From the NCBI GenBank assembly GCA_964349125.1, contig CAYGFH010000002.1, forward strand, positions 174,484 through 238,483: 64,000 nt of DNA. The letters are read 5' to 3'. The notes below the pieces were generated by a model that did no database searches, was not told where the DNA came from, and was given only the letters and a program-made list of their open reading frames with translations. This document shows, piece by piece, positions 52,901 to 64,000 of this stretch (position 1 is its first letter; each line of letters starts with the position of its first letter). Position numbers and translations under genes: made by a program. Origin of the DNA: an uncultured Gammaproteobacteria bacterium (GTDB lineage: Bacteria; Patescibacteriota; Microgenomatia; UBA10105; UBA927).

Positions 52901-55900
52901 TCGGCAGAGATGCCAACAACGTTTCTTTTCCTGCGAATTTTGCCTCCATATAGGCTCGGATATTTGCGTCTTCGTCAATTGGCACATCATCCCGCGCTTT
53001 AGCCATCACACGTGCTTGAAATATAGCGACCAATTCATCATCATCGGTCAACAAAGACCCAGTTAATCCAAGTCTCGTAAACTCGGTCTGTAATGATTCT
53101 TTAATCACTTCAATGTATGCAGTGTAGAGCGTCGTCAAATTTATAGTTGTTTGGAGAGTACTGTTTGAGGCGACCAGCTTTTGGTATGCATCATTGGCTT
53201 CGATAACCGATGGAGCATAGACAGATCTTCGAATGTGTGCACCGGAATCTGCATCGCTAACACGCGCAAGCAACTTCCCACCCAGTATTCCTAGTGGTTT
53301 TTTACGGCCACTTTTCTCTGCATAAAATACGATCGTGTCATCAAAATTTAGCACTCCCCCGTTTGTTGGTATTCTCCGTCTTGTTGTATCAGTTCCGATT
53401 GTGTACCACACATCTCTATCAAGCGTCAGGGCGATCACATTCCCTTTTCCGCTGACCACATCTACAACAGGTATCACATCACCTTGGCGCAAGCTTCGTT
53501 TCGCCGCTTTTTGGAGGGAGACATTCCCGGCATTTGCTGATTGCGCATCTACAACGGCTTCCCATGCAGTGGCAAGCGCATCTTGTTCTGGCAATGCTTC
53601 AATTTGGGCGGCTATAAGCCCTGTCAAAATATCGGAGCGCTGTTGTGGGGTCTTCGTGCCTGTGATTCCAGCCGCGGCAATACCCTGCGCAATTGCGGCA
53701 GCACGAACAGCAGCGTCTGATAATGTCGTATCAATAGGTACACCTGCAACAGGTGGGATAACTGTCGCTGGGGCACCAAGTGGTGGCACAATTGTCGTAC
53801 CGCCGATGCCTTGCAACTCTCTGCGAACTCGAGCAGCATCTGCAAGCATGCCGCCAATCCTGGAATATCCTGTGTTATGTTGCCTTGCATCTATAAGGTA
53901 ATGCACAACATCGACGATAAATCCGACGCCACCGGTGGCAAATTGCCTGACTATGAGCGCCCTCCACTGTCTCGTGCGCTCTGCGGCTGACCATTTTGGA
54001 TTCCATGGTGATGGCAATAGTACGTAGTTCATGAGCATGTCTCGAACAGATGTGGTAGGAACAGAAATGCCGACGATGCCACTTATGTCAGCCATAGGCA
54101 CTGAGGAGACTCTCGCAGCCGCTATTTGTGCGACGCTGACCGCAGACCCTAGCGCATCACCTAGCAGCTGCGCTCGAAGGCCATCTTCACCCATAGCTCT
54201 CACAGTGGATAATCGTGTTGCAGTAAATAGTGCATGTACTTCTTTATCAAATGAGGCTTTTGCAGATGGATTCACTAATGTTTCCAGTACCTCCGGAGTG
54301 ATATTCGGATTGCTGTTTCGTTGCGCAGCTTGCTGTATAGCATCAATATAGGCGACAGTTGCGTTTTCCAATGCCGTAGTTGACTGAGAGCTACCGGTAA
54401 ACACCTGTCTGACACGCCCTCTGATATCCTGATCAAATATCTGATCAAAAGCTATAACTTGGGCCTCTGCTCTATCTACTGTTTCCTGCGCGATGGCTAT
54501 ATCACCAAATGCAGTCGCAGCAGAAGAGACATTTGATCGTTGTATGGTCGATGATGGCTTAATTTCTACCGTATTTGCGCTTCTTTGGAGCGCGCGAATC
54601 TTTGCTGCGCGACTACCCTTTAGAGTTGGTTTTCTGGTACCCGGCTTTATGTAAAATGTTGCGTAGGTGTCGAAATCACCTAATGTCATAGCACTGACTG
54701 AGATTTCGGTTACGCCGCCTCGTGGTCCGACGAGTATCATGCGGCCGTCATCTGCCACCGGTATATTACTTATTCTATCACCTGTCTCAAAAATCTTCCC
54801 GACCATATCTATGCCTTTTACCGTGGCGACCTGGGTACCCGCAGTTTGCGCAAGTGCATCGCGGTTTCTTTCTGCGGATATTTGAAGTGAAAGCGCTGCA
54901 GCACGACCGGCCATAAATGTATTTCGCTCTTCATCTGTGATTTGCTGGCCGGTTCTGATTTTCTCCGCCACTGCCATCGCTGCGGTAATATATCCTGCCT
55001 GAACTTGCGCGGACTCGAATGCTGAGATGCTTCCTCGAGAGAGTGACGAGCTTATTTCCATATCAGAGTCAATTCGTTGAAGCGCAGGCAGCACGACCGG
55101 CCTCGGCCGCCAAATAAGATTTGCTACAAATGGAGCTCTGGCTTCCATAAATGTTCTAAATCCTGATTTGGCTACTGGTGTGGCTTGCTTCTGTACGACC
55201 GGCTTTATGTCCGGTTTACCTGATCCGGCTAATTGCTGCGCTTCTGAAGATGCCTTGACCGTGGCATTGTGTGCTCGTTGATACTCTCCCAGGTCACGAG
55301 CCAATAATGGTGGATCTTTACTGTCTATTTGCACACCTTCCGCAAGATAACTCAGTGGATTTGTTCCTGTATTTCCATTCATCACATCCCGATTGATTGT
55401 CAAACGCTTAAACAAATCCGGGCTGGAACGCTCAATTATGTCTAGATACGGTTTGTTTGCAGGATCGTCAAACAGTGCTTGGAATGATTTGGTCATTTGT
55501 GCGAATTGCTCGTTTCTGGCCTCGAGTGTACTTCTGGCGCTTGAAGTTGTACGGACGTCTCTACCGCTCGCACCTGAGGATAGATCTAAGAGCTTCACAG
55601 ATGCCCACTCGGCGATCCGCTGTGCTGCAGGATCTGAGGAGGATCTGTATCGCAAGATAATGTCTTCGAGCGGCTTCTTTGCGGCTGACTCAAGTCCTAG
55701 AGAATTAGCCTGTGCTGTGTTGAATTTTTCCAGCGTTGTTTGTGCATCGGCAATCGATTGTTTAAATGCAGCAAACTGCGTATCATTCATCTGGGCACGT
55801 GAAAGTGTAGAGAATTGTCCTGCCGTGTCATCAACAACGATGAGATATTGCGTGGCAATCCATTCTTTCCGATCAAGCCTACTGGCACCCTGAACGACAA

Positions 55901-58900
55901 CTCCTTGAGCCGTGTCTTTTGTCGTGATGGTAATACCCGGGATATTCTCTGGCGTTGGAATGTTATCTCCTGTTGCGCCTCCCCGACTGATGACGACGTT
56001 GAGATTTGCTTCACCACTGGCGAATCGTTGTGCCAGCTTTCCTGATCCTCCTGTCGCATCCGGAATTCGTTGTGACAGATTTCCCGTCGCATCTGTATAC
56101 CCAGCCTGAATGGATCCATCCGCGTTAAACTTCACGTCATAATACTCAGATCCTCCAACTTGAACAACCCACGGCGTATCTTTGGGATATTTTCCGCTCA
56201 TTTGCTGTCTTCTGGCGTACTCGATCGTGCTCATGTTGAGGTCGCCTGCAAGGACATGTTTTGCACTTCCATTGGAAGCCAGGCCATTCGGGCCACTTGA
56301 ATCAAGCTTCTTTCCTGATCTGATTGCAGCAGCTATATCGATAAACCCATCGCCTGAGGCACGATATGACCTATCCGCAGTTAGTCTTGGAGGATTACCA
56401 TCAGCACCGTTAAATATCTTGTCAAACGTTGCGCTGCTCTTGGTAACACCAAGTTGGTATGAGTTCTGCAATACGCCTGCTTGTTCTGCAATGCTTCCTG
56501 TCACGGCTCGGACCGCTCCGTTGGCGTACCCGGAGATGTCTGATATTACGTCGTGGAATCCTGACTTATATGCACGATCTGGAGCCACTTCCAATCCTTC
56601 AAAGTTTGGAGGCGTTTTCCCAAATGCAGTTGCACCGATAGCCTCCATAACAGCCTGCATTCGTGAATTATACGTTTGCCCTTCACTCATGGATCCGGAA
56701 TTCCCAGGGATTGTCACTAATCTTCCTTTTGCATCAAATCCTCTAAAGAATTCGGTGTCATACGACATGGTAAGCCCTGATGCATAGCGATTGGTCGCAT
56801 CCACTAGATCAAGCACTTTTGCGATATCTCCTTGGGGAATACCTAATTTCTGCGCTTCAACTGCTAATTGGGCCGGGTTAGCGCTTGCGGTATTAAGCAC
56901 CTCGGCATTATCGACAATCTTCATAAAGACATCGGTCGGGATTCCTTTTTTCTGTGCGAGCTTTGTGTATATGAGTGTTTGTGCTTCCTTGCTAAATCGG
57001 GCGTCTTTAACGACAACGCCGTTTGCATCGATCACTTTCACGATAGCTGGCTTCCCTCCAATCGTTTTTTTCACGCCTTGATCGGGTACGCCTTGCTTCA
57101 TAATGGCTACGTCGTCAGCGATCAATACGTCATACACATCTTTGGCGGCTCCGACTACCTCAGGCGGCACAACAGCTCTCGCCGATGAGGCTGGGTTTAT
57201 CATCTGAATAGACGGATCAAATGCAAGCTGGAGTTCATCCACGCCGAGTGCGACATTTGCAGTTGCGAGTCTATATATGTCGCCTATAAGTGAGCCTTTT
57301 TTTGCATCCAGCCCGTATGTCTCCAATGCCATGTTTCTGATAAAGGCAAGGTCTTCCGGTTCTGTCAGTAGGATTTTTCCGGATGAAAGTTGATCGTGAA
57401 TTCGTTGCAGATCAGCAATATCTCCTCGCAAATCATCTGATTTTAGCCTCACTACTGACTCCTCACCATTTGGCATAAGTGTGCGCAGTTGCTGTAAAAA
57501 TGCGTCTGCCTGCCCTTTTCTGGCCACGTAAATACCACGTTCACGACCGAATACTTCCACATCTACTCGCAACATAGCCGTAAGAACCACTGTTTTTCCT
57601 CCCGATGTGACAAGTTCCACGGCTCTCGCATTATCCCCCAACAGGGACATCATGGTGTCTATTTGATTGTTTTTCCATGAACGATATTCACCGTCGAGCA
57701 ACCCTAATCGAAGTTCGGTATCACCCATGATTGTTTCAAACGCAAGCCCTGCAGATTCATCTAACCCCTTGGGGAACACAACCTCCTGGGCACTCATTTG
57801 ATCAGCAAGGCGCTTTGTTAGACTGGCTATGAGCTTGCTGTCACGAGATTTTCCTTTTATCGCCAACGCGGCATCCAACTGGGATTTCGTAACCTGTATA
57901 TCCCCCAACAGGCCTAGTTTTTTGATAGCTGATTGTACATCTCTCAACTGGGAAAGCGCCTGTACACGCTCCCCTGCGGGCGCATTGGACGCAAGTTCCT
58001 GCGCCCTGGTGAGCGTTGTGCCAAGCGTATCCATTTCTGTCTTGATCTGAGCGTTGAAATCCTTTTGAATCTGATCCCTTTGTGCTCCATCTGTGGTTTT
58101 GCGTAACTGAGTATCCCGCTCGATTTGCAGGTCTGTAATTTTCTGTCTACTCGCAGCTGCCTGCTCAACAATCGAAGCTGCATCCCGAGCATTCGGTCCA
58201 CCCGCATCTACAATCTGTTTGGATGCGTCTATTCTCAATGCGACGTGCGCCTCCTTGATTTTGGCGATTGTAGTCATTTTCGCCACATCTGACGGATCAA
58301 TCAGAGAACGAACGCTCCCTTGTGTTTCACGAATAAGTGTGGCCTGCTCTTTCAATAACGCTCGTTTCTTTGTTTGAGACGGCGAACCGGCCAATTCCCT
58401 GTCTATACCGGTAAGCCTATCCAGCTTATTGGATATTGTTATGAAATTTGATTCCATGTATGCAAATTGCACCATGTTTTTGGTATTGTTCACTTGCGTT
58501 TCGGCAGCCCGGGCAATACTGTCAGCTGCTTTATTGATGTATTTACTGTCGGTGTACCCTGCGCTTTCAAGTGACTTCTTGGCACGCTCGAACGCGAGTG
58601 TGTATAATTCGCTTTCACCCGTTACGCCTCGTTTTTGAGACATCTCAGTATAGACATCACTGATTGCCTTTTGGACCGCATCTACATCTCCTGTATTTGT
58701 GCCTATTTTTGCTTTTATGCGGGCGCTTACCTCTCCGGCTGCAAGATCAGTCGCCACTATTTGCTCTGTGCGCTTTTGCACAAACGCATCATTGACTTGA
58801 GTCAGTTCATTTTGTGTTGTTCTCCCAATACGTATTGCGCCCGTACCATCCGGTCGTCCGATAAATCTCTCTCGGACAGCAGCTATGATGCGCTGAACAC

Positions 58901-61900
58901 CGCGTGCGGTATTGCGAGCCACAGTCAATTCTTGAACTTTGGAATTCAACAATGACACATCTGCGCTTAAGACAGATAGTTGCTCTTTCTTAAGCTGTAA
59001 TTTCAATTTAGCGTCAGGATCATTTGATCGTATACCATCAGCTAATAATTTGATCTCGGTTGCACGCAATACTTCAGACTGAAGAGTTGCGATACGAGTA
59101 TCCAGTACTGCCCGTCTCTGTGACAAGGCAAGTTGTTGCTGTGCTACTACATCCGGAAGAACGGCATCTCCAGTTACTACGCCCTGCGCATCCACAGTCT
59201 TCCATACATACTGACCACCTTCTTGAACTGCCTTAAATCCGTTCAAAACGGTAGCGTCTATCTCAACTGTTCCTACATTCCAAACGCCTTTGGCGGCATC
59301 CCAAACTGGTGCTCTTGAGGAATCCCCAAGCGTGTTGCGCGCCGAGACGGCAGCCTGTAATTCGTTTTGGGCATCTATGACGGCTTGTTGCGCTTTCGCC
59401 CCGCTTTCATCCTGAATTCTTAGAACTTCGTTCAGCAACTGTGCCCGATCTCTGGATAATGCAGCTATCTGATCCTGACGGGTTATAATATCTTCCTGAA
59501 TTACCAACTGCCTGGAAGTTAACCCGATGGATTCAACTTTCTGTCTCGCTCGAGATAATTGTTGCAGTGCAGCATCATATTCCGCGGTACCTACCGAGTA
59601 GTCTTTGGCGACGCCCATGAATTTTTCCTGGGCGGCAACATATTCTTGCTGTATAGTTCTCGAACCTTCACTTAACCCATCAAGAAGTCGTTGTGCGGCA
59701 TTTCTGGGATTTTGCATGAGTGCGCGTTCAGCCTCGACAGACGATCGATATATGAGTAAATCATTGGTAGCTGATTGGTAATCACGAAGTGCCTGTGCAT
59801 ACGCAGCAGCATCTGGAGAGAGTGCTTTTAGGGCTTCTTGCGAGAGTAAATATTTGGATTGCGCTTCTTTAAATTTCAGTGCAGAGGGCACATCATCGGC
59901 AATATTGGTTAGCGCTTGTTTTGCAAGCGCGAGCTCATAGCCCTGTGCTCTGATAGCAGTCCGTAGCTGCGTCATAGCAGCAAGCTCTTGTTCAGCCATG
60001 ACAGTGGGTAAACGATTTCCGTTTGCATCGTACATTGACTGTAGCGAGCGACTAGCTGCATCTAGCTGTACAGCTGCGCCGTCTTCGCTGGCCTGTACCC
60101 TTGGACCTCCAGATGTTGGAGTTTTCAGCCCAACACCAAAACCTACTGTTGCCAACGTCGCTTGTGATATAGATTGAGCACATGCACTCGCATCTAACCG
60201 TGCCGCACCAGAAAAACATGCGATACCAGCTTGTAGCGCGCCGCCGCCAGCGTCACCCGCATCAGCAATCTGATTTGTCACAAGCGCGGTTCGAGCTATG
60301 GAGGCTGGATTATTGGCACTAGAGATTAGTGATGCCCCGGATGAAACGATGCGGAATATAGATCCTGCAACCGCCACAGAGTTTGCAGCACAACTCATCG
60401 CATCTTTTTGTCGCCCACCGTTCCCATCATCATAGCCGATAAAACATGCGTTAATGGCTTCGCGGCCCGAGATTATTCCACCCGCGGCACTGAGAGCTAT
60501 GTTGCTATATTGAATCCCACGCCCTGCGCTCATTGTTAATTCTGCCGTTGTTGCAAGAGCGGCACCATTTGCCAGATTTTTGGCATTGTTCACCAGCTCT
60601 ACTCCTTGCGCGGCATTAATTGCAGCATCTGATACTTGAACAGTTTTTTGTATCGCCTGCTGTCCTAAGCTATATGTGCCGGCTATTGCACTAAACGGTA
60701 TCGATGCTGCCTGCACGGCAGTATTGAGACTTGCCCACCGACAGTCAGTCGATGCCACTTGACCTGGCACACACGCAGTTGCGGTACGCTCTAAACTGGC
60801 GGTTGTTCCAATAACGCTTGCACCGACACCGGCTACCGTCAGATATGTCATTGTGGTACCGGCTCCGGCAGCAATCAGCGGCGCAGCTGCCCACGGAGCA
60901 AGCGCTACTGCAGCAACTGCTACTGGAACTGCGGCAACAGGAGCACCTTTTATGAGTGACCCCTGACGGAATTCCGCCATTATCTGCTTTTCTTCTGCGT
61001 TTCCAGCGACTGAATTATAAATTGCGCGTGGTATGTTAAATGCATTTGCTGTCATAACAAGGTTTGTCATCCCTTGACTATCTGCATACCATGCATCTTT
61101 ATGCAGCTCCTGATATTGAGTAACTGCATTCATCTGAATATCATTTCCGCGCTTTACCGCCCCGCTGGTGAAATTATTTAATACGTTCCAAAATTTCATC
61201 CCGACACTAAAATCGTCAATAACTTTTTCTACATCGGTTGCGATCAATTCCCCTCTTTGGAATTGTTCGTATGCCTGCTGATATCCTTCTTCTCCTTTAA
61301 TATTTTGATACGTTGGCGCGACGTCTTCCCATGCGCGAATCTGTTCATTTTGGAAATCTTCGAATGTACCTGTGGGATTGTCTTTCTTATATGCATCAAA
61401 TGCCTTAAGGTAATTTGCATGATACCCATTTGCAGGATCAGAGAGATATGTCCTGACAGCTTCATCTCTTGCTTTTTCAAACTCTCTACGCTCTGCTTCT
61501 GTCTTGAACGTTGACGGATCTATTATTGCTTCGAAGTGTGCGTCTTTTCCTTTTCCTACCAATACAGGGACATAGTTAACCTGCATACCAGAATATGGAT
61601 CAATTCCGCTGCATGTTTTTTCATCAACAGTACAAAATCGTCTGGCACCTGTGTTTGCATCGTAGATAATCGCCCCATCGATACAGGCGCCGCCTCCGCA
61701 GGCTCCATTGCATTGTTTTGTGCTGACAACAGCACCGTCACCACGCTGTCCAGCTGTTGGATTGAATGTTTCTACAGAGTTTCCATCTTCTGAGCATCGG
61801 TTGTATGCGGTAGATTGCCACATTCCAAAAATACCACCTACTTTTACTTCCACTTGCCCGCTTCCTGCCCCAATTACAGGACATCCGTCTGCTCCTTCCA

Positions 61901-64000
61901 CGAGTGCATACGGACTTGTGATGTCGACTTTTTGCTCAGATACTTTTCCGTTTGTCCCTGTGGTTGCCACATATCTGTCAGATCCTTTACAGTACGGTTT
62001 TCCTGCGAGCACGGTAATTGTTTGGGCACTCCCGCCGGTTGCCGATGGTATGGTAACACGTAAGGTTGGGATATCCGCTTTTAAGTCGGCGGGAAGATTG
62101 TTTAATAGTGTCTGTTTTGCCTGCTCAACGTTACCACACTCAGCCACGCGGGAAGTTTTAGAGCCTCCCTCGACTAATCTGCAGCGCTCTAATATTTCCA
62201 TATCTGTACCCGCAAGCGCTTCCATGGTGATCAACGCAGTACTTCGACTAGAAAACGCCAGACGATCAGATGCGCTCAATGTTGGTGAAATAATTAATTT
62301 AGCAAACGTCATGTCACCGCACCTAGCCTGATCAGCAGCGCTCTCGACAAGAATCTGACACGCGCTAACCACATCTGCAAACGAACCTTTGACTGCTGCA
62401 TTGCTTATATATGAATTGAAGCTGTCTCGAAATGCCTGTTTTTCCTCTGTTGTACCGTTGAACTGTAAGAGAAGCTGCTCACGAATTTTATTTGGGTCGC
62501 AAACTTTCGGATCTTTTCCTGCACAGAGTTCTGCGTTCGTTGCAAAATACTTATCTTCAAGTACCGTAAATCGTTCATATTTTTGTGTGATCTGTGTTAC
62601 GCAACTGTTGGTGCTTTGTATAACCGTGCCTCGTTCTCCTCCGCTACTCACTTCGCTGCACAAACCATCCAATTGTTTTAAGTTAGCGAGTAATTGATTT
62701 GGATTAGTTACATTTGCACATTGCGTGGCTCCAGGTTGCTGACATCGTTCCCACTCTGCTACAGCATGCGAGTATTCAACGTAATATGTATCTTGCAGAT
62801 ACTTTGCGAAATTTGCATCCAATCCTGACGTATCCATACCGTATGCTCCACCGGTTTGGATAAACGCCTGTTTCATGGCTACTTCATATCCTCCGCACCG
62901 CGCGGCAGCATTTGATTCACCATACTGGGCTTTGCAGCGCTCATAGAGTTCCTTCTGCTTATAGTAATCACCTACTGCGTCGATTGATGTACGTGATTCG
63001 ACAAATTGTGATCTGAGTATCAAAGAGGCTTCAGATCCACCGTACGCCTTAACCGCCTTCTGTGCACATACTGCCGCACTCGTATCCGTAAGCAGACATG
63101 CATCATAGTCAGATTGAATTGTACCGACTTTTTTTTGCTTTGCAGCATACGCAGCGGCAAGGATAGGATCTGTAATGACATAGAATGTATTTCCGGATTT
63201 TATGCATGTTCCTGCAGCCAATTCATTTTCAGTACAAGAACCAACAGACTTTCTCGCATAGTCCGGAATATTAGTAATATCGGGTACGCACATTACGTCT
63301 TTTTCAGGATTACACGTTACCCAGACAGGATTCCCGGCAGCATTGGCACTACAGACGTATCCACCCATGACGACAGTGCCCACTCCGAAACTGGTACCAT
63401 CTGAGCCGCTACAGGAACCCTTTGGAATACTTATCTCCTCACCGGCTTCCTTAGTATTAAGTCTTGCAGCTTCAAATTGTGCAACTTGCACTGAATTTTG
63501 CGTCTGGGAACCCACATACCAACTTGGTATATATTTATCGGTCAAATCGGCTTCTGTAATACCCACGTTTGCATTCGTCAAGTCTATATACGTACCGGTT
63601 CGCCCATCACATCCGTATAAATGATGTCCTTCTCCGATAACAACAGCGCCGGCTTCTATACCTCCACAACTCTGATTCCCTTTTTTCAGGTCTGTCAAAA
63701 TCGCAGGAGGGGCGGATGGTGCTACAGAGGTCGCACTCGCAGGTGGAGGTGTGGTTCCCGGTACTATCGCGGCTGTTGGATTCGCAGAAGGAACAGTACC
63801 ACTCACGCCAAACCTTCTGTTGCATTCATCAATGTTTCCGGGCACTCCCCTCGCACCATACATACACATGTTATATGCCAGTTGCTGCGCTGCCGTTAAT
63901 GTAGGTGCTACTGTTGGAACCGCAGTTGTTGGCTTCGGATTCTGGGCAATACATTTAGTAATCTCTGCCTGTACTCCGCCGGCTTTTTGTATACATTCTC
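31947..64000 (-). CDS. Giant multidomain protein, gene A. It is 5'-partial: the frame is open to the window edge, the first in-window Met is at 63869 and the stop is at 31947-31949. More than 10,680 codons are visible. Predicted to be a secreted or surface-anchored mosaic protein with embedded metallophosphatase-like, lipase/esterase-like and HExxH metalloprotease-like segments and an internal polytopic membrane domain.
   Basis: The six-frame track gives a single 10,640 aa minus-strand ORF, 31947..63869. I checked by hand that the same frame stays open from 63870 to 64000 (...PTTAVPTVAPTLTAAQQLAYN-MCMYGARG...), so the true start is upstream of the window. The C-terminal codons and the TAA at 31947-49 were verified codon by codon. 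The protein has a non-random composition with Cys-rich, coiled-coil, TM and motif-bearing segments. All long plus-strand ORFs in this span are antisense shadows. Confidence 0.9.
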   Translation of the reverse strand, partial: ECIQKAGGVQAEITKCIAQNPKPTTAVPTVAPTLTAAQQLAYNMCMYGARGVPGNIDECNRRFGVSGTVPSANPTAAIVPGTTPPPASATSVAPSAPPAILTDLKKGNQSCGGIEAGAVVIGEGHHLYGCDGRTGTYIDLTNANVGITEADLTDKYIPSWYVGSQTQNSVQVAQFEAARLNTKEAGEEISIPKGSCSGSDGTSFGVGTVVMGGYVCSANAAGNPVWVTCNPEKDVMCVPDITNIPDYARKSVGSCTENELAAGTCIKSGNTFYVITDPILAAAYAAKQKKVGTIQSDYDACLLTDTSAAVCAQKAVKAYGGSEASLILRSQFVESRTSIDAVGDYYKQKELYERCKAQYGESNAAARCGGYEVAMKQAFIQTGGAYGMDTSGLDANFAKYLQDTYYVEYSHAVAEWERCQQPGATQCANVTNPNQLLANLKQLDGLCSEVSSGGERGTVIQSTNSCVTQITQKYERFTVLEDKYFATNAELCAGKDPKVCDPNKIREQLLLQFNGTTEEKQAFRDSFNSYISNAAVKGSFADVVSACQILVESAADQARCGDMTFAKLIISPTLSASDRLAFSSRSTALITMEALAGTDMEILERCRLVEGGSKTSRVAECGNVEQAKQTLLNNLPADLKADIPTLRVTIPSATGGSAQTITVLAGKPYCKGSDRYVATTGTNGKVSEQKVDITSPYALVEGADGCPVIGAGSGQVEVKVGGIFGMWQSTAYNRCSEDGNSVETFNPTAGQRGDGAVVSTKQCNGACGGGACIDGAIIYDANTGARRFCTVDEKTCSGIDPYSGMQVNYVPVLVGKGKDAHFEAIIDPSTFKTEAERREFEKARDEAVRTYLSDPANGYHANYLKAFDAYKKDNPTGTFEDFQNEQIRAWEDVAPTYQNIKGEEGYQQAYEQFQRGELIATDVEKVIDDFSVGMKFWNVLNNFTSGAVKRGNDIQMNAVTQYQELHKDAWYADSQGMTNLVMTANAFNIPRAIYNSVAGNAEEKQIMAEFRQGSLIKGAPVAAVPVAVAAVALAPWAAAPLIAAGAGTTMTYLTVAGVGASVIGTTASLERTATACVPGQVASTDCRWASLNTAVQAASIPFSAIAGTYSLGQQAIQKTVQVSDAAINAAQGVELVNNAKNLANGAALATTAELTMSAGRGIQYSNIALSAAGGIISGREAINACFIGYDDGNGGRQKDAMSCAANSVAVAGSIFRIVSSGASLISSANNPASIARTALVTNQIADAGDAGGGALQAGIACFSGAARLDASACAQSISQATLATVGFGVGLKTPTSGGPRVQASEDGAAVQLDAASRSLQSMYDANGNRLPTVMAEQELAAMTQLRTAIRAQGYELALAKQALTNIADDVPSALKFKEAQSKYLLSQEALKALSPDAAAYAQALRDYQSATNDLLIYRSSVEAERALMQNPRNAAQRLLDGLSEGSRTIQQEYVAAQEKFMGVAKDYSVGTAEYDAALQQLSRARQKVESIGLTSRQLVIQEDIITRQDQIAALSRDRAQLLNEVLRIQDESGAKAQQAVIDAQNELQAAVSARNTLGDSSRAPVWDAAKGVWNVGTVEIDATVLNGFKAVQEGGQYVWKTVDAQGVVTGDAVLPDVVAQQQLALSQRRAVLDTRIATLQSEVLRATEIKLLADGIRSNDPDAKLKLQLKKEQLSVLSADVSLLNSKVQELTVARNTARGVQRIIAAVRERFIGRPDGTGAIRIGRTTQNELTQVNDAFVQKRTEQIVATDLAAGEVSARIKAKIGTNTGDVDAVQKAISDVYTEMSQKRGVTGESELYTLAFERAKKSLESAGYTDSKYINKAADSIARAAETQVNNTKNMVQFAYMESNFITISNKLDRLTGIDRELAGSPSQTKKRALLKEQATLIRETQGSVRSLIDPSDVAKMTTIAKIKEAHVALRIDASKQIVDAGGPNARDAASIVEQAAASRQKITDLQIERDTQLRKTTDGAQRDQIQKDFNAQIKTEMDTLGTTLTRAQELASNAPAGERVQALSQLRDVQSAIKKLGLLGDIQVTKSQLDAALAIKGKSRDSKLIASLTKRLADQMSAQEVVFPKGLDESAGLAFETIMGDTELRLGLLDGEYRSWKNNQIDTMMSLLGDNARAVELVTSGGKTVVLTAMLRVDVEVFGRERGIYVARKGQADAFLQQLRTLMPNGEESVVRLKSDDLRGDIADLQRIHDQLSSGKILLTEPEDLAFIRNMALETYGLDAKKGSLIGDIYRLATANVALGVDELQLAFDPSIQMINPASSARAVVPPEVVGAAKDVYDVLIADDVAIMKQGVPDQGVKKTIGGKPAIVKVIDANGVVVKDARFSKEAQTLIYTKLAQKKGIPTDVFMKIVDNAEVLNTASANPAQLAVEAQKLGIPQGDIAKVLDLVDATNRYASGLTMSYDTEFFRGFDAKGRLVTIPGNSGSMSEGQTYNSRMQAVMEAIGATAFGKTPPNFEGLEVAPDRAYKSGFHDVISDISGYANGAVRAVTGSIAEQAGVLQNSYQLGVTKSSATFDKIFNGADGNPPRLTADRSYRASGDGFIDIAAAIRSGKKLDSSGPNGLASNGSAKHVLAGDLNMSTIEYARRQQMSGKYPKDTPWVVQVGGSEYYDVKFNADGSIQAGYTDATGNLSQRIPDATGGSGKLAQRFASGEANLNVVISRGGATGDNIPTPENIPGITITTKDTAQGVVVQGASRLDRKEWIATQYLIVVDDTAGQFSTLSRAQMNDTQFAAFKQSIADAQTTLEKFNTAQANSLGLESAAKKPLEDIILRYRSSSDPAAQRIAEWASVKLLDLSSGASGRDVRTTSSARSTLEARNEQFAQMTKSFQALFDDPANKPYLDIIERSSPDLFKRLTINRDVMNGNTGTNPLSYLAEGVQIDSKDPPLLARDLGEYQRAHNATVKASSEAQQLAGSGKPDIKPVVQKQATPVAKSGFRTFMEARAPFVANLIWRPRPVVLPALQRIDSDMEISSSLSRGSISAFESAQVQAGYITAAMAVAEKIRTGQQITDEERNTFMAGRAAALSLQISAERNRDALAQTAGTQVATVKGIDMVGKIFETGDRISNIPVADDGRMILVGPRGGVTEISVSAMTLGDFDTYATFYIKPGTRKPTLKGSRAAKIRALQRSANTVEIKPSSTIQRSNVSSAATAFGDIAIAQETVDRAEAQVIAFDQIFDQDIRGRVRQVFTGSSQSTTALENATVAYIDAIQQAAQRNSNPNITPEVLETLVNPSAKASFDKEVHALFTATRLSTVRAMGEDGLRAQLLGDALGSAVSVAQIAAARVSSVPMADISGIVGISVPTTSVRDMLMNYVLLPSPWNPKWSAAERTRQWRALIVRQFATGGVGFIVDVVHYLIDARQHNTGYSRIGGMLADAARVRRELQGIGGTTIVPPLGAPATVIPPVAGVPIDTTLSDAAVRAAAIAQGIAAAGITGTKTPQQRSDILTGLIAAQIEALPEQDALATAWEAVVDAQSANAGNVSLQKAAKRSLRQGDVIPVVDVVSGKGNVIALTLDRDVWYTIGTDTTRRRIPTNGGVLNFDDTIVFYAEKSGRKKPLGILGGKLLARVSDADSGAHIRRSVYAPSVIEANDAYQKLVASNSTLQTTINLTTLYTAYIEVIKESLQTEFTRLGLTGSLLTDDDELVAIFQARVMAKARDDVPIDEDANIRAYMEAKFAGKETLLASLPKLQSDATVIDYTAWLDSLTQPVLNSVKVTTPPVSAPPISAPPVVAPVVDPAIAAEKAKKNTDALAILRTAYAELIASQRAAILAEVAKLKDTPLRPDEAAEQVEVIVRSGIFKSGFSNTAYTTTILAKLTAAGLTQAEAKAAYDEFVTKVVDPNFATITTAIMAGLTSTKTVTQKTVKVTETQAETLRYMYADYHSDVTKLQQMLEADNLITVKSDGSWEWVGGNSAKVIFLGDYMDRGVDKDGNIQAFLENDPARKKDKYYPGLEILNRLTALKSQAEAAGSEFTMLGGNHEVEFLWAMFEPDNSPRWDLFQRNGVSRREVAIAKKHLGLIRGWLENLSWISLRSDKSVMQHTDTAIYAKFIFSDDIAAVQDYDELDINDINRIAARVKAEKLTPEDVVRRINAGIRAQIRLASVPQLRTLFRSLTHHGQFSSSRAISDAYRGIFTAPVLYHGHNILKDPVYHNGTVVGLDVGLSAAYRDANSRFIGTTRIAGRTTIDSKPVDVTTYTYAYDANVLQSVDTKVPTNYVFGIFSSSPVAPASTKSTVTGAVAKAGSWLGSIINAVVRPQLYDGTTKKFQWGQIAISAGRTAVFIITKTFGLGVPWLAYDVYNTSVHLSDNPTFKTTHAWIGDNILFPNFWAKGLTPPARFWKTVSWVGTRFVGGLFVPQLIIPTLIHDGARFVADVFAGTAESIQALFAQTMDWSDSFTGFQKTLAKITIWGGWTIGAFATIAGLSLTLNAISIAFAVAPVISTAVSTGTAVSTTVWARGFTLLTSLFIFSNIISMINVIPKPADSAPDRNKNLYGIHAYILSPNPLGNNETPTWGVIKTVSLVTRWSLSGFNPILIGTDVLNMVINNRFRNRTPAAVQHTTPGTTGGAGVTTTLSDSTYEVKDTFWSKVTSLLGSYGVSWPRANGIEWLAQLVPAGIRGSYWWTAFTFTKGAVSLHAGLPFWLLQESRHFLEKIPKDSPWRFLLDTNELLFPTQWNDPTVHPVINVLKWPVWGVTRFFVAFGAQQWWLPIMDVMRWVDRYMNTGAAAPAVYTTGANVPWREAVGKIIPGFAPAPASFDDLPQWKQNLWKVTDSWFSKLLFSTPRNKTGWFLGSRGLPLIMVPKVSLGLILFDLFRSSVTPGGYFEYWSSDPYNQKGTLSNLAATAELDALVAKPTTLEAINFANKAIDKKELDALTDAPTKKRAQVMFDLKTAWIKYIADAKNVGKLLSMIEEGILKKTPDKATLDIVNLLMTVPGSTNPDRTNTVFDKDQKMIYALQFTEGIIAQLSVLNEASDRAVAAGTVNQGQSIADTKAALLSAIADQPKATDVTRQLFLVWLDRKAAELSKLPAKAVTPAAIVGGNYATPTGRKLLMDKAQVIVNQNKLPGDLTAQDAFTLYQGLLASDMAIAAADAASLPSTSTRFTSVLNDDIRIKIQRGFGDLSSTEVNKQQLKDIAANIFETEMNYVKNGTLSSAEDTININLIAFIIDPANKLLAPARYQKMNGATPLQLRNIQYGDFVQIPVTEIPGPAAANTAKDAARTAFAEYVAEYRGDFIEDVLSTKRSVPTIVRDRRAEYEATDEFAALLAVDPTAKVDTFLTAELNSIVQDVGALSSAWTSAEQNKIIAYGVSLLESGRKLIFGSLTTQIRNAVAKGSVSDDVYEAWVDKVAISMETKARDQYDTKVAKPKASPPKASKTDKVNEVYEDFLAVRNNLTALEGLSDSQKLLNKEWATADLRKLADELESLGLAKTSATTYTGLASYIRKLDKAQFSSAMTADSATKPFAKAVKNFLQWTDEKAKDGYHLTVFTTIKEEIVSQMNRTRPKPVTIQEKLDALNKIDKKKVRDVFKSQLQEFRPELTSISATDMNEAIDASIALQRYSVATVDLASLMELTKIGSNVIWPIITQIGGNVRGIQDYTSSLILPAFFRAIGRSQTVDRAEQIRKVVMTGLSPLTDMIGRAEDIVKLTNSINGKIKRLQAGIIADDVDENGFLNKSGVEASILVQYKRLTDGNQKGIFSKIQALVANGIIAPDAYAADVKAIGIALSDLGFDVPSDPAQIIKFIESLNVRLVSSVVSAGADVDKLTAAVDALDNKTKISADGIDSIMGATMYAKLLESLKQSFSAQSGPADVLNGIQSVQVDELMAAGKAAYGEYMGGSLPKNKEAALRASAEQILAMSTYLLPMGQLTDYLGMDIPKYNEETLGQILTGDAKRTAQTKFIQQSLKFYEKAIKKAQGNLSALEHIRYALEGAVLPIARLARGVSQVRAVIADVNAQIDSLMPSAKVLKDPFPALLSSAKWNAREKKYINHVKQAIEMMKSGKYEEVISQLSKSNAEEIAEGVGMLVDEGKNTLDPENGLRFENSSQHLKGTLMLGNTDISKLTMDQLRNVALMHIEQWSYGIQDLQAEKLKDHAVDIGIISGRAKNQTTFDYRTDVALFMQEAGIRLTPAFIGRYGRDAFVNKTGESVLQTYADPSIRSVFTLGKGNQADIIVSGDTDIAAVSVNIVRKADGNWYVKNVSTESQIDINLVVKAYNSETLLNDRDVLTIGGTSFIVSKGSSGMQLIDEKSGKEVAFFGSAGSIRSYSQDTATKILTDGATTKLNKNDVRSTIASLGSSANVSNIILDGNDQTIDARHLEIFVNDGVWYVRDVSTNGILVDGKKIKTKAKVTTLYNKSIITLTNGVSIVAQLSRNRQELTLQRADTQSGLRKILSEEVRKVREENNNQAGSISIDDAKKMLSGVVKKDKLTRLDRTYRYVIGRLDMGEHVLPVFDIGMRTRIDSLITRTSDYKGKGIKKIDQLSEGEIYLLLGHTLAAIDTLTEFAGKKSLLNNTDALVDSLGDAVESLTGKSRSSLFEKPPSTAVTLKEREKYLKGVVINPVSNELAKKLYSDGFTGLHRHADDDVSELFINYTEIAKMSQEKQIAALIHVFLHERLHIPQKGTSSQRYPGNNPTYKEILDEAMVYIAIAQQKGKKLTIFQTGTQRPKISDVERYLNDAVIDIASVYQRGTIQLIQQVIRLAASSKLGEQEVWSLFFDAALSGDITPFERAYNATFGDGKFGSKFSSNFSDASYYTTNAYKNAGDEADLEDSTIPGNQAEAIPVSSGLLANKKILVVDPASVHGSGIVQSLQFDGANASTTLAIADRDLAYLQTLDAIVVANSLPEAQIARIKANAGNVPVIEFTPEYEGNMEGFGQKVAQAITPDSALLLNQNQSTLAKSDIEAALKEGFQGGTPWIFPATFIPDLEKIPVEQIPDKIALIRESFFTLKRRLQDARDIVTATNIGVGEKQQMIFSAIGYDVLLESGINPDALFTAIGTAVKSGSYDRASFVNFLVLGYEGNGDTQGAALQAVLNTIDAVLAPMEKTLSSIETRAETIRQKKNENLRQGDAIRLPTQSVSAPSQNAPIAPSAPLVSTSQQRDLAEKWLGTELVSSLRTLFPSTTGDSTVQSILNSLASRIHHTLNDPSEQVLEESDVSAHFPWYQSGRLFTFMREAKNSREALQSLLFNEVALDGLIRDGGQTVVGSLLIKNIDQIVAAMPKNSMLRDTVLRMIAHRIESELARTTRSSSTYQIVVRQSPASVEFVILSDNASDTQIPTDVSAALRKYLGGTFFRNGLQVPAIIDGRRVNRELQFAIKNKREFETSQTSPLVRSNTSLIGRVSDFYTTFPPDIQAAILPLIEMASGTNPKVDVDAVRKKIVDRISQLTVNSSMEQGLPKVRVFHTGADAISYVRRKANNNFVTAVRIGVEDTSQNGKSDESQRAAFKTIIEYLRTLVPDIDVTAVYDAEASAWYLLVPDSTYSNIALSLSKLPEHMREKYIGRTGLATVTVTAEPIVLDQSEQQPGATSHEDMEVGYQRAFDSLDEPALDAQVMDIIRRFVDFANDPQGHEPTSDESKAVYELLNPSSQRGRIVLERLGLTERNMTNLAEYWNADVESKFTKKDFFGVKKGLVGRALLDYRKRRLGEEQLKADAQIEGAAKRIEAAKKTMTVSMQIAPGAYYVQESAFIDPRAGIFQFETISSDVEDPSAEYSADLLTIRLPTETLLELQRLQQNDHPEFLNRITVMLANKNKKVRIFIHGFHASKEVFRLFSKFAIPESTLENPVFADAKSLRGAEQTARKKSWVVETTQDGKPVLDSDGNYKRITGLQAWWYNVTDVGKLAYWALNKAKPPILRGSRRYVVQDVIRQIKIGNAALGIDSEQIELMLGHSYGAYTVEMFGIETYKDERYKNVRFVGDASVVNNNPNHLSLLYPDTKLKGNALRADKFLKWATRVFNNPVFPASWRRFFMSIGSLPVLRYEGKWTSLLGRIYDNLDVYSDGFHIVTSRSVHTATERKNPEMAGKDLVMLASLEDLFKYKTQMRELVNQGRLQLVVPDSEEKTAKSIDHILNSFFTFVLAWDMKNIEPPLPNRSSFMTRRTSGHYPPPEDWNVIIDAMNKVGVQPTLNSEVGVARSQSQAVSPLQANDSIAVKLMKMSATVGQIVSDVSTVINDRRIYDKKTGQLREKANLMDQFLMFLYPTYRTIRNIGKSPAFIQAKFALQSVALSDPDTAVIDHSIKGYYRQHIYDPDNYPIERNGNVLSSKTEEALLRWLTQQEVLERSIVQQSVDKVVAFAKAARVPSDSTVLQRTVAVLDDVSFDRELRAFARRKLRLDGVVNPTDSQITEYTQTIPGFYDHDFDMVVLRASAAVLAKSDEKIQAFLDDLVAHEFGHSMTTRYEPWLTREANEALSITFMIARRAYELQEAGKTPDTDGTYWKQAREQVLNDFVSPEYKSHFIAFEDSVIGTLFKLDTSTNNRIAQIMEFFNLTKDINPQAVETNKTDISVGLQLRTKFTEILEKMSITKATYTVDGKAVEVALDHDVVTDTFTKSFNGFRFTQDAPDEVVRFTSVANQIATPSDGLPDPSVINGGYVYMGVSGDAMWLRLPKEFTQSVYIGSELLRNEVAYQIRPGDVLTFERAPHDAAAHQYIVTVSHDASSEIGFEPVGRVQPVEYPKKQVPTSGEWTEALNVEAENYYRMRGKLALAAEGDSVMLKGMPKAGGDAIERRLSLYTSHTDFKAILAAFDTTQSLEIIVGDQQVGTISTSPADLYTANIEPGMYTTNRTSSHISPMSAPTVVKDESASSGQTTRISSKRLVSSYERARDYEISKIFLRVLGLSESSNKRLYDAAARTLVESKSLQEIFIFFKRSLLDHDEMVELPNIELSQNTDVSIIKKLEQEYTVRSQQRIWGQDAISMLSGLGGKLIGTVYLRELDGLAVSGNSPESQLVLRARAYVMQKVLKENKGALTNFEVVRVSANRYAIVSFDESFTYPELEKLFNKTEYKNLDAVLPGKSGIAISPVQPIITEPDEFLTALFAPEQYERGLLTKDGAVQIPANNPLYKNLVTHYGSLDTLLRGVIEEDALPAAGPEFIDRIRSLLVHLVVEDAVVETSLEIEKENQKFADDPSYSYTVYPDASDALEDAVRTFEKVSVIRIDDPSLGLAYTHESKKVADEMLKDMLRKINDVATRKLLFKNIIIYHPPGTSEFYLFAQSTFPFNKNEVSTHLQSVFGNSAKAYTPSGSERSYLRIPVVAMQPIPTEDGRPLLETFLDVKATLDDEIGLRTRQQIRKALTNNFQEVEPWKWSWFRELLRDTPSLVKQFNPNTESPQEYTDVFMRAILTSESSEDKALDMVLGDKENDNWSIAYQIDNHHKGSVTKLERFLMPVLERLFGKSKYKLNANRIDDTEMNGFEAEMNAATPPLIGRTADRVITEFVAQDDVNIEPSRALSALVTLGFSQDMYLHEFPQQWILNMDFTQKGHPPVSKKTEQNVVVGVYAKSTKSWKTVNIPYSMLTKLFESFDAATPESLVSIQSQLDAYIRAELSSAVASTKAPKHISFAYWDDPSTQGEAQRDWVARTGAPIVVGKDAKGWPMVANDHIIAHGYYANRMMRDLKSALGVVGDISTLRNRPYIQDDTRYKNTIFIDEVPGGAIDFYAATIAMAAASRIGGRTAVSTMVGVPGLDKDNKLTLTKNGQVVPVAISALRQVSRQELQNLITEGRAGKSLLQRIYTAYRGKIPSWMEWFFTNIVMASPFINGTQGILRGPLLTNISDKYDGVPHGLTTINQTGDYAFNMAIMTDTTNGTAFITSNGFGNPEIAARTREAFAKYYNLVKNGESFEWPTPIPWYQRAGEWILWQLERLASVYTGPYVHDRPWPALFAIPKTAHTLITVDPIAETETISDLKALPLYVVNRMDASGKINIVIQKTGTETQPVAINGQIVNSAVTLFPGDTISFGDSDQYRVRVDSSSGIVFEHTKTGAQIRPRGIVSGIPSDGDYLNQPTRTAYLSVSNTTQTNLKRVISRYHPEIPYQLLMIQREVPRDSTAIPLVALAAGKDFDIVSGEAPFIVSYQGVPIGRMTRYGNKIELIFEGSSALQSANLDASSMQAEAENEAISSDPSTYPVSGALLPKSEKTQVVSLDKIPGVTISITDETLLLSDPENSISLVMTIPNADKIRENGIIPESILEYVVENYYFHLLTESRKSDAGGTPLIAQRIIELQYRIDTAADPDIRGMLDDIKIIATYPDPLASSPTVITIEIGYQPGETGLLRVDRQGVQRVQPPVSEKGEPAEAVRVRKVQMSNAWFAIASPSLSSRLADELKKIFATVAGVEDPQEAVTRALLYAPSQAQDIALAMLRPSGTNSIVPGGATNMTFVNETLDSTPANPAERERRIDNFVNRALLHIRSFEKRTGAQAVKYWYSMNEVGEYVFATDNTDASIKQLLRDAIVKINDTIGKKPTIHIGLDVAGSNEYPVLISLEQEKDPVVRKNILPTIKITFKHLSTTTLKSSATVDSCTTPRVSFRLLSTVFAQSNTGCIYLYSGKPYYSPDGNKLGEMPSSGIFFEKGSILPHFFNGSDKIIFGNTATITVWSLRGRQDIKGSDIMPIIEEIQPVSEGAQSGTVMTAMQDFWGGIVKSANAFITILRNGVKALVANGLMGIYRAFKDTPNYCAV
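38794..38808 (-). other. Gene A HExxH site 2 (DDLVAHEFGHSMTTRYEPW), a zincin-like metalloprotease motif
   Basis: The plus strand gtgaccaaattcatg reverse-complements to H-E-F-G-H. It is flanked by AH...GH and a downstream EPW, typical of minimal zincins. Confidence 0.45.
40280..40720 (-). other. Gene A alpha/beta-hydrolase (lipase/esterase, PGAP1/DUF676-like) segment: IFIHGF oxyanion motif, then GHSYG nucleophile elbow
   Basis: GHSYG is encoded at about 40286-40303 (plus strand gtaggcaccgtaagaatggcc). KVRIFIHGFHAS lies about 140 aa upstream in the same ORF. The order and the G-H-S-x-G pentapeptide match serine hydrolases. Confidence 0.45.
42781..42790 (-). repeat. Homopolymer T10 (A10 on the coding strand) inside gene A, encoding QKKNEN
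   Basis: The plus strand has tttttttttt at 42781-42790. The reverse complement is cgt caa aaa aaa aat gaa, which matches the ORF-track protein ETIRQKKNENLRQ. Confidence 0.8.
44115..44129 (-). other. Gene A HExxH site 1 (IHVFLHERLHIPQ)
   Basis: The plus strand atggagcctctcatg reverse-complements to H-E-R-L-H. The context AALIHVFLHERLH was confirmed by reverse-complement. Confidence 0.3.
49527..51290 (-). other. Gene A internal polytopic, Trp-rich membrane domain (about 590 aa, at least 6 predicted TM helices)
   Basis: Several uncharged 20-45 residue hydrophobic helices were read directly. One is ITIWGGWTIGAFATIAGLSLTLNAISIAFAVAPVISTAVSTGTAV at about 50590-50760. Others include GFTLLTSLFIFSNIISMINVI, RFVGGLFVPQLIIPTLI, FFVAFGAQQWWLPIM and LPLIMVPKVSLGLILFDLF. 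Trp-dense loops lie between them (GSYWWTAFTF, VLKWPVWGVT). Boundaries are at GAVAKAGSWLG (about 51290) and LILFDLF (about 49527). The 399 aa plus-strand ORF 49570..50769 is its antisense shadow. Confidence 0.6.
52023..52205 (-). other. Gene A calcineurin-like / PPP metallophosphoesterase motifs II and III (GDYMDRG ... GNHE)
   Basis: GNHE is encoded at 52023-52034 (plus strand ttcatggttgcc). FLGDYMDRG is encoded at about 52185-52211. The two lie about 50 aa apart in the order expected for PF00149-type phosphoesterases. A canonical motif I (GDxHG) was not found upstream; SDGSWEW occupies its place. Confidence 0.5.
52740..52830 (-). other. Gene A Pro-rich interdomain linker (VTTPPVSAPPISAPPVVAPVVDP)
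   Basis: Located by reverse-complement of plus 52740-52830. It lies just C-terminal to the phosphatase-like block. Confidence 0.6.
57450..60050 (-). other. Gene A extended alpha-helical / coiled-coil stalk (about 850 aa)
   Basis: The protein between QELAAMTQLRTAIRAQ... and ...LTKRLADQMSAQE is dominated by Q/E/A/L/R/K heptad-like sequence with few Pro or Gly. An example is LQSEVLRATEIKLLADGIRSNDPDAKLKLQLKKEQLSVLSADVSLLNSKVQELTVARN. Confidence 0.5.
60800..60950 (-). other. Gene A Ala-rich hydrophobic segment (AAVPVAVAAVALAPWAAAPLIAAGAGTTMTYLTVAGVGASVIG), a putative membrane anchor
   Basis: A run of about 45 apolar residues follows the Cys-rich region immediately. It was located by reverse-complement at about 60800-60950. 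Confidence 0.45.
61000..64000 (-). other. Gene A N-terminal Cys-rich (about 5 percent Cys) presumably extracellular region with a Pro/Ala/Ser/Thr-rich linker
   Basis: The ORF-track protein has about 40 Cys in the first about 750 in-window residues (CSGSDG, VTCNPEKDVMC, TKQCNGACGGGAC, among others). A low-complexity TTPPPASATSVAPSAPP linker lies near 63700-63780. Confidence 0.5.

Follow-up and report, generated by a model that had tools for sequence, protein, structure and literature searches.

A giant protein partitioned by cysteine: a candidate surface or host-interface protein from a relative of the ultra-small Gottesmanbacteria

Introduction

The large and giant proteins of Omnitrophota are, by analogy, nearest in kind to the product of gene A, the subject of this text: a minus-strand open frame of 10,683 codons in a DNA stretch of 64,000 nucleotides from contig CAYGFH010000002.1 (positions 174,484 to 238,483; the whole stretch is called the window below). 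A SecA_DEAD domain has been reported for most of the Omnitrophota giants and it has been left open which of their parts lie outside the cell; the candidate phyla radiation (CPR) is not listed there among the phyla rich in proteins of at least 10,000 amino acids (aa), and the text never mentions cysteine, so that a cysteine partition of the kind reported here is not described in it (bioRxiv 10.1101/2023.11.21.568195). Gene A shares with these proteins a length above 10,000 aa, an ultra-small, presumably host-dependent bacterium as its source, a sequence in which few domains can be recognised, hydrophobic segments that precede an ATPase-like block and, in one relative, a methyltransferase-like module. 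It differs from them in that no sequence similarity was detected and that SecA_DEAD is undetectable in gene A by hidden Markov model (HMM), profile-profile or pairwise comparison; by crude scales it also has far fewer hydrophobic segments, and it belongs to a different phylum (CPR). Host dependence of the gene A bacterium is assumed from CPR bacteria in general.

Two further groups of giant proteins invite comparison. In Vampirococcus lugosii, a CPR predator, the longest proteins sit in the membrane and are thought to make up a fibrous surface that binds the host (PMC8080830). Compared by description, these proteins are unlike gene A in length (1,392-4,163 aa against at least 10,683 aa) and in carrying known interaction domains (WD40, PKD and saposin among them), whereas the gene A head is without a known domain. 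The tandem giant genes Giant1-5 of Apilactobacillus kunkeei take up about 6% of a small genome (PMC12863079). Their products are extracellular and consist of an N-terminal binding domain followed by long alpha-helical regions, and they are the best analogue of the original prediction for this part of the window, which saw in gene A a surface fibre with a distal cysteine-rich head on a long coiled-coil stalk. The Giant1-5 proteins, however, are built from Ala-rich repeats, their head is a beta-solenoid, they lack transmembrane segments and their C-terminal wall anchor is SH3b-like, whereas gene A has no repeats, a head of paired cysteines, hydrophobic hairpins and no recognisable wall anchor.

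In the CdiA, Rhs and MARTX toxins, a binding region is followed by a hydrophobic membrane-insertion region and then by an enzymatic C-terminal part. Gene A would follow the same order; its N-terminal third looks conserved and the remainder variable, its Cys-free body may be translocatable, and its homologue G has a HINT domain just under the Pfam cut-off. Unlike these polymorphic toxins, it contains no two-partner secretion (TPS), FHA-repeat, RHS, RTX or known toxin domain (no Pfam or NCBIfam matches), and the gene downstream of it is another giant gene, gene B, and not a small immunity gene. Hydrophobic helical hairpins are also found in pore-forming colicins and in toxin translocation domains; here the likeness is one of composition only, namely a charge-free stretch of 40-50 residues rich in Ala, Gly and Val with low-charge amphipathic flanks. 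A Foldseek match to colicin Ia carries no meaning, as the model was of low confidence and the TM-score about 0.07-0.10. In kind, gene A is best placed with the giant surface or host-interface proteins of host-dependent bacteria, outside any named family.

The Cysteine Partition of Gene A

Two minus-strand open frames, gene A and gene B, fill the window in a six-frame analysis. The gene A frame remains open where the window ends on the right (base 63998) and its N-terminus lies off-window, so residues are numbered from that edge: residue i begins at base 63998-3(i-1) and is read downwards, and bases 61000-64000 correspond to aa 1-1000. From the base composition, the chance of a stop-free frame of 10,683 codons is ln P about -666. 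The homologues referred to below are P0001-P0006, the six proteins found when aa 1-1010 were run as an HMMER query against all 1.84 billion proteins of a representative set, and G, a giant open reading frame (ORF) of locus L004.

The most conspicuous property of gene A is the distribution of its 43 cysteines, 40 of which lie in aa 1-1273 (binomial P about 1e-33) and 34 in aa 1-800. They are arranged as consecutive close pairs, with a median spacing of 13 residues within pairs and 44 between pairs; in 18 of the 20 consecutive pairs the partners lie no more than 21 residues from each other, whereas chance gives a mean of 9.7 such pairs and 18 was never reached in 20,000 permutations. A typical module of this region, called the head below, consists of a helix, a C-x8-15-C loop and another helix, as in ERC KAQYGESNAAAR CGG, and in aa 291-640 such loops are formed by the pairs 301/311, 355/368, 419/427, 447/466, 492/500, 547/560 and 606/621. 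The cysteines are conserved column by column in P0001, P0002, G, P0004 and P0005, and aa 660-800 contain seven invariant Cys columns across five aligned sequences. Where a pair is missing, both partners are lost together (45/59 in P0002; 255/265 in P0003 and G), which is the behaviour expected of disulfide partners. The cysteine-rich domain of the original prediction is thus borne out by the number, the pairing and the conservation of these residues.

The remainder of the chain shows the opposite extreme. From aa 1274 to aa 10525 there is not a single cysteine, where about 40 would be expected (P about 6e-18) from 14 cytoplasmic-type proteins encoded on related contigs (DnaK, DnaJ, GrpE, HrcA, NusA, Rho and a UvrD-like helicase among them), which together contain 22 Cys in 5,137 residues (0.43%). 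The same exclusion is found in homologues, with no Cys in about 5,390 aa of P0002 and in about 2,970 aa of G. Cysteines that are either paired or absent are the pattern expected for exported proteins, and the total exclusion beyond aa 1273 supports export of the whole chain. The Cys-free region of about 9,250 residues is followed by a further pair, 10526/10547 (window 32358-32423), and the protein ends in ...DTPNYCAV, with a Cys three residues from the end (31950-31958).

The Cys-rich head is very likely extracytoplasmic, as suggested by the paired and conserved cysteines, the joint loss of pairs, the Pro/Thr linkers, the hydrophobic anchors of the homologues, the HINT domain in G and the peptidase in P0006. 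No match of the head to adhesin, lectin, fibre or other families was found in Pfam (permissive thresholds included), PHROGs, NCBIfam, PDB sequence and profile searches or a phage tblastn search. A phage tail-fibre origin was rejected, with no tblastn match in 50,697 phage records and no PHROG match.

The N-Terminus and the Probable Export Signal beyond the Window

The window start aligns to about aa 400-470 of P0001 and P0002 and to about aa 700 of G, and 400-700 residues of gene A therefore lie beyond the window. Upstream of the aligned head, P0001, P0002, P0005, G, and L006 and P0006 begin with a strongly hydrophobic N-terminal anchor, for which a crude sum of the apparent free energy of insertion into the membrane (dGapp) gives -0.9 to +0.3. 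The order in the homologues is a hydrophobic segment, then Q-D-x-R-S-(R/K)-A, then Cys-pair modules with Pro/Thr linkers. The original prediction had placed the true N-terminus, probably with a signal peptide, outside the window, and this is supported by the open frame, the upstream homology and the hydrophobic anchors of five homologues.

Common to P0001, P0002, P0005, P0006 and G is the N-terminal motif GF(V/I)Q(F/V)LPL(I/V)LLA, with Q-(D/E)-x-R-S-(R/K)-A some 12 residues behind its hydrophobic core; it may be a signal-peptidase site. Its G|F is pilin-like, but a class III (type IV pilin-like) signal was not found, as the homologues read G|F(V/I)Q(F/V)LPL with Leu, not Glu, at +5. In G, a HINT/intein-like domain lies between the N-terminal anchor and the head (L004:2675-3133, G aa 318-470); its best match is Pretoxin-HINT, at 26.0 bits for PT-HINT, slightly under the Pfam cut-off of 27.7, and the gene A counterpart would be off-window. 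This domain could release the protein from its anchor.

The ATG at 63869 was rejected as the gene A start, because the frame is open upstream of it and the homology to P0001 also begins upstream. On a fragment of this kind, automated gene calling would truncate the protein (window 63867-63998). A 50-mer from the window edge had no exact match in genome, metagenome and viral contig collections.

The Hydrophobic Hairpin and the Helical Region

Crude hydrophobicity scales single out two hairpin regions and one weaker segment in the 10,683 aa of gene A. The first hairpin directly follows the head: in aa 1018-1069, one third of the residues (33%) are Ala, none is charged, and the stretch ends in GVGASVIGTTASL. 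This stretch of about 50 charge-free residues is conserved in gene A, P0001, G and P0004, more weakly in P0002, and so are the three Cys loops that follow it. It is best read as a two-pass membrane hairpin, an arrangement that would place the Cys loop 1076/1086 on the same side as the head. The Ala-rich hydrophobic anchor of the original prediction is accordingly present, at aa 1013-1069 (window about 60792-60960), just outside the 61000-64000 segment to which it had been assigned. The Ala-rich helices behind the hairpin are far less hydrophobic, with crude sums of +5 to +8 and with Arg and Glu among their residues, and AlphaFold gave them a very low predicted local distance difference test (pLDDT) score of 22-38. 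A three-pass model, in which the helix after the last Cys loop would form a third pass, was rejected, since this helix is short, polar and not conserved as hydrophobic.

Further along the chain, aa 1301-2090 form the helical spacer that had been predicted to be a coiled coil of about 850 aa (57450-60050). It is indeed Cys-free and predicted to be alpha-helical, but several properties of the sequence speak against a continuous heptad coiled coil. The heptad-occupancy score averages 0.26-0.38 against 0.24 ± 0.15 in the shuffled control, and hydrophobic periodicity is modestly raised, but equally at 3.5, 3.6 and 3.8 (z about 3). The share of charged residues (D+E+K+R) is 0.25, close to that of the remainder of the protein. 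Thirteen prolines interrupt the region, the longest run free of Pro and Gly has 49 residues, and the AlphaFold model, built on a three-sequence alignment with pLDDT 55-79 in the spacer (48.5 for anchor plus helical region), breaks it up into some 25 separate helices, each 17-53 residues long, with a small beta insert between them at aa 1565-1611 (window 59166-59306). Over aa 1000-2130, the alignment identity is 38% to P0001 and 28% to P0004. The head and the helical region are without detected repeats: gene A yielded no BLAST self-matches, and Smith-Waterman scores of subsequence windows against one another were no higher than those of shuffles. Foldseek matches of the anchor/helical-region and conserved-block models (MakB; MukB, catenin, colicin Ia) had TM-scores of about 0.1 or less and were discarded.

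The arrangement of a distal head on a coiled-coil stalk is not supported. From the N-terminus onwards, the chain consists of the anchor, the linkers, the head, the hairpin and then the helical region; the head adjoins the membrane element and the helical region lies beyond the hairpin, so the helical region cannot hold the head away from the anchor.

On Which Side of the Membrane Does the Body Lie?

We lean, without much assurance, towards gene A encoding an exported host-interface or surface protein, the Cys-free body of which is extracytoplasmic as well. In addition to the absence of cysteines, an exported body is favoured because the only convincingly hydrophobic element is the hairpin, with its even number of passes. 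The close pair 10526/10547 and the paired cysteines of gene B also speak for it, and the giant proteins of V. lugosii, Omnitrophota and A. kunkeei serve as precedents. In the proposed course of events, Sec would thread the chain outward from the off-window signal-anchor, and consecutive cysteines would be oxidised as they emerge, so that a series of small modules is locked and the head becomes a stable ectodomain. The stretch of 50 residues would then insert as a two-pass hairpin, by which the chain would return to the outside, and the Cys-free body would likewise be extracytoplasmic and would form, jointly with the gene B product, a surface or host-contact apparatus. Head and hairpin would act as a contact and membrane-insertion module. 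That the body has no disulfides may reflect its exposure outside the cell or a need to stay translocation-competent, for example for presenting or delivering the FHA and HExxH domains at the host interface; modules of intracellular type would act after delivery into a partner cell, or may not be what they seem.

Several observations weigh against this reading. The FHA domains of gene A and the S-adenosylmethionine (SAM) methyltransferase of P0004 are of intracellular type, and they are equally well compatible with a cytoplasmic body; the Walker-A-like block would need ATP. Lys/Arg-rich flanks occur on both sides of the second hairpin (aa 4424-4490 in gene A; aa 3836-3893 in P0002), and the single strong transmembrane segment of G has an Arg-rich N-flank; by the positive-inside rule, such flanks suggest a cytoplasmic middle body. 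The head matches no known adhesin fold and its binding role is putative, the AlphaFold models of the conserved block and of the anchor/helical region are both of low confidence, and the hydrophobicity scale values, and with them the dGapp figures, are crude.

These points would be accommodated by a receptor-like trans-envelope protein, a possible though doubtful alternative, in which the head and the three Cys loops would be outside and the spacer, the Walker-A block, the FHA domains and the remainder in the cytoplasm. The Ala-rich region would have to cross the membrane an odd number of times, for example as seven weakly hydrophobic helices, the head would sense or bind something at the surface, and the helical region would couple it to the cytoplasmic modules. 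Bacterial membrane receptors usually consist of an ectodomain, a transmembrane part, a long helical part and an enzyme domain, and gene A resembles this order, with a methyltransferase placed directly after the helical region in P0004 as well as the FHA domains and the Walker-A-like motif; the positively charged flanks seen at the second hairpin and at the transmembrane segment of G point the same way. The seven-helix parse also puts all three conserved Cys loops on outer loops and none on an inner one, but the same alternation of helix, Cys loop and helix recurs in the clearly soluble head, which weakens the argument. Such a protein would need transmembrane helices in which Arg and Glu occur and for which the crude dGapp is +5 to +8, and it offers no reason for the lack of any Cys over 9,250 residues against 0.43% in related cytoplasmic proteins.

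The remaining explanations are less probable. A host-unrelated housekeeping envelope scaffold, for example a wall or division protein working with the upstream LysM/M23 peptidase, would explain why the order of the LysM/Peptidase_M23 gene and the giant gene is kept in five loci, with rho in three and DUF2298 in three, and would suit the chromosomal location on a 1.22-Mb contig; yet rarity (six matches in the set of 1.84 billion proteins, a single locus in the GTDB species genomes and one more in the JGI metagenomes), fast divergence and a variable C-terminal two-thirds are unexpected for a core function, and we regard this explanation as improbable. The fibre in its literal form, a dimeric or trimeric coiled coil of about 850 residues with a distal Cys-rich head and an Ala-rich anchor, is more improbable still. 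The region is helical, Cys-free and of the right length, the head is exported, and giant rod-like adhesins with N-terminal binding domains do exist (PMC12863079). Against it stand the near-control heptad score and unspecific periodicity, the prolines, short Pro/Gly-free runs and separate helices with a beta insert, the lack of repeats, the position of the head N-terminal and of the helical region C-terminal to the hydrophobic element, and the failure to find an adhesin or lectin domain. That gene A is an assembly artefact or a decaying pseudogene without a functional product is hardly credible: the homologue P0001 is split into two ORFs on its contig, but the frame of gene A is stop-free over 32 kb, and identities of 38-58% to independent contigs extend over thousands of residues, with cysteines and motifs conserved.

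Feature Map, Downstream Body and Neighbouring Frames

Table 1. Features of gene A and the other frames of the window; residue numbers are those of gene A.
Feature	Window position	Strand	Residues	Description
Gene A	31947..63998	-	1-10683	10,683 codons (31950-63998) plus stop 31947-31949; collinear homology to P0001, P0002 and G
Two small Cys-pair modules	63699..63998	-	1-100	C2/C16 and C45/C59 with Pro/Thr/Ala-rich linkers between; continues the off-window ectodomain; aligns to P0001 aa about 396-470
Gly-rich head module	63129..63698	-	101-290	Conserved, beta-rich by eye; motif GHH(L/I)(Y/F)GCDG, five Cys pairs; also in P0006
Helical-looking modules (by eye)	62079..63128	-	291-640	Stretches joined by short Cys-pair loops
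Cys-knot module	61599..62021	-	660-800	Conserved, beta-rich by eye; C-x3-C-x4-C-x16-C-x6-C
Helical-looking domain beside the membrane	60963..61598	-	801-1012	Cys-free, aromatic-rich; ends in conserved F-x-R-G-x-L-I
Charge-free hydrophobic stretch	60792..60947	-	1018-1069	52 residues, Ala/Val/Pro/Gly-rich; ends GVGxxVIGTTxSL
Low-charge amphipathic helices	60099..60791	-	1070-1300	Ala/Gly/Ser-rich; three conserved Cys loops 1076/1086, 1185/1203, 1261/1273
Alpha-helical spacer	57729..60098	-	1301-2090	Cys-free, non-repetitive; about 25 helices, beta insert
Most conserved block	55629..57728	-	2091-2790	58% identity to P0001 and G; putative NTPase
Second hydrophobic hairpin	50529..50729	-	4424-4490	Lys/Arg on both flanks
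FHA domain	44886..45086	-	6305-6371	Pfam PF00498; second matched stretch nearby
AHEFGH (HExxH) domain	38562..39254	-	8249-8479	Common to gene B and P0002; putative zinc peptidase
Gene B	2..31552	-		At least 10,517 codons, continuing beyond the left edge; N-terminal hydrophobic segment, sparse paired Cys
Antisense open frame	49471-50766	+		432 codons, overlaps gene A; no family match

FHA is the sole significant Pfam domain of gene A, and the HExxH and Walker-A-like motifs were recognised by eye only. The enzymatic cargo proposed in the original prediction for the modules further C-terminal is a hypothesis. The most conserved block contains a Walker-A-like T-S-G-G-K-T at aa 2131-2136 (window 57591-57608) and V-D-E-L at aa 2253, by which it may be regarded as a putative nucleoside triphosphatase (NTPase); its AlphaFold model (three-sequence alignment, pLDDT 44) is unusable. 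A resemblance to SecA can be seen by eye, in xxTxxGKT, VDE.., TGxxAE, GATGDNI and QGxSRxxR and in an insertion at the position of the SecA preprotein-binding domain. A SecA-like motor is not claimed, as every statistical test was non-significant: four family members gave no Pfam match to SecA or helicases even at E up to 10, a PDB profile search was negative, and comparison of the block with Escherichia coli SecA gave an hhalign probability of 0.3% and a Smith-Waterman z of at most 2.4 against shuffles.

The FHA domain matches PF00498 with E values of 7.9e-13 and 4.5e-15 (49.1 and 56.3 bits, gathering cut-off 20.7), and P0002 likewise carries FHA domains. The motif AHE[FA]GH with a downstream NE is shared by gene A, P0002 and gene B (aa 8203-8409 of the latter) and is the sole similarity between genes A and B; by this motif only, the domain is a putative zinc peptidase. 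No Pfam match was found in the last 1,083 aa of gene A, nor was an LPXTG, beta-barrel or SH3b anchor.

Gene B is separated from gene A by an AT-rich gap of about 400 bp. Its hydrophobic segment lies at aa 65-83, it has no Pfam matches, and its sparse cysteines occur almost only as close pairs (8 of 19 gaps of at most 21 residues, against a random mean of 0.76). The antisense frame of 432 codons is probably a by-product of codon usage.

Homologues and Gene Neighbourhood

The relatives of gene A, only seven in number, are of unequal completeness. P0001 has 3,178 aa and its gene continues in the next ORF, which extends the homology (L003:16759-20568, gene A aa 2965-3394), so a frameshift or an error of assembly has divided this giant gene. 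P0002, of 7,292 aa, is followed on its contig by a gene for 6,923 aa; P0003 is a fragment; P0004 has 2,042 aa; and P0005, partial with 1,239 aa, is annotated at NCBI as Candidatus Gottesmanbacteria. P0006 (L008:10001-12034) is a secreted-type protein of 677 aa in which an N-terminal anchor and a GxxIYGCDG head module are joined to a papain-like peptidase (Peptidase_C70/C39_2), a fusion that shows the head module to be portable. G is longer than 6,872 aa, and across aa 662-3444 of gene A the two are 43% identical. Homology to G ends at aa 3444, and homology to P0002 is patchy to or after about aa 4850, beyond which only shared modules are found.

Other searches added little. In word-index protein searches, which miss this family through their index, two single-sequence queries gave no match and a profile query found P0006 only. 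When each GTDB species was scanned through one genome, the only locus lay on the 1.22-Mb contig of a Candidatus Gottesmanbacteria metagenome-assembled genome (MAG), and a scan of JGI metagenomes found one further locus on a short contig. All relatives come from Candidatus Gottesmanbacteria or from unclassified metagenomes. Judging by these relatives, gene A is from a relative of the ultra-small Gottesmanbacteria, though from none of the organisms named here, since the 50-mer from the window edge had no exact match in any collection; as far as its known members can tell, the family is chromosomal, rare and lineage-specific. A LysM/Peptidase_M23 gene precedes the giant gene in L002, L003, L004, L006 and L007; rho is also found upstream in L002, L003 and L006, and DUF2298 in L002, L003 and L007.

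Concluding Remarks

A bolder form of the exported-protein reading, which we consider rather unlikely, makes gene A the single-polypeptide contact-dependent delivery device of a CPR episymbiont. The disulfide-locked head would bind the host surface, the hairpin and the Ala-rich amphipathic helices would insert into a membrane, and the Cys-free chain of about 9,000 residues, with its FHA and HExxH domains and the putative NTPase, would be threaded or presented across the interface. If this were true, the exclusion of cysteine would be the sequence signature of a threading or presentation requirement.

Rare and without annotation, the gene A family must also be a heavy expense for so small a genome, and its cysteine partition is striking and conserved across homologues; its function and topology are inferred. 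If the source genome is about 1.22 Mb, genes A and B, neighbours that are both non-repetitive and both exceed 10,500 codons (about 64 kb together), would amount to roughly 5-6% of it, an extraordinary investment and a share similar to that of the A. kunkeei giants. What is known of how CPR/Patescibacteria attach to and exploit their hosts comes largely from a few cultivated Saccharibacteria. The sharp contrast between paired cysteines on one side and about 9,000 Cys-free residues on the other is easy to search for, and with its help giant proteins that are exported or translocated could be spotted in further uncultivated lineages. The same signature offers a concrete way of testing which parts of giant proteins lie outside the cell, the question that the Omnitrophota study left open.

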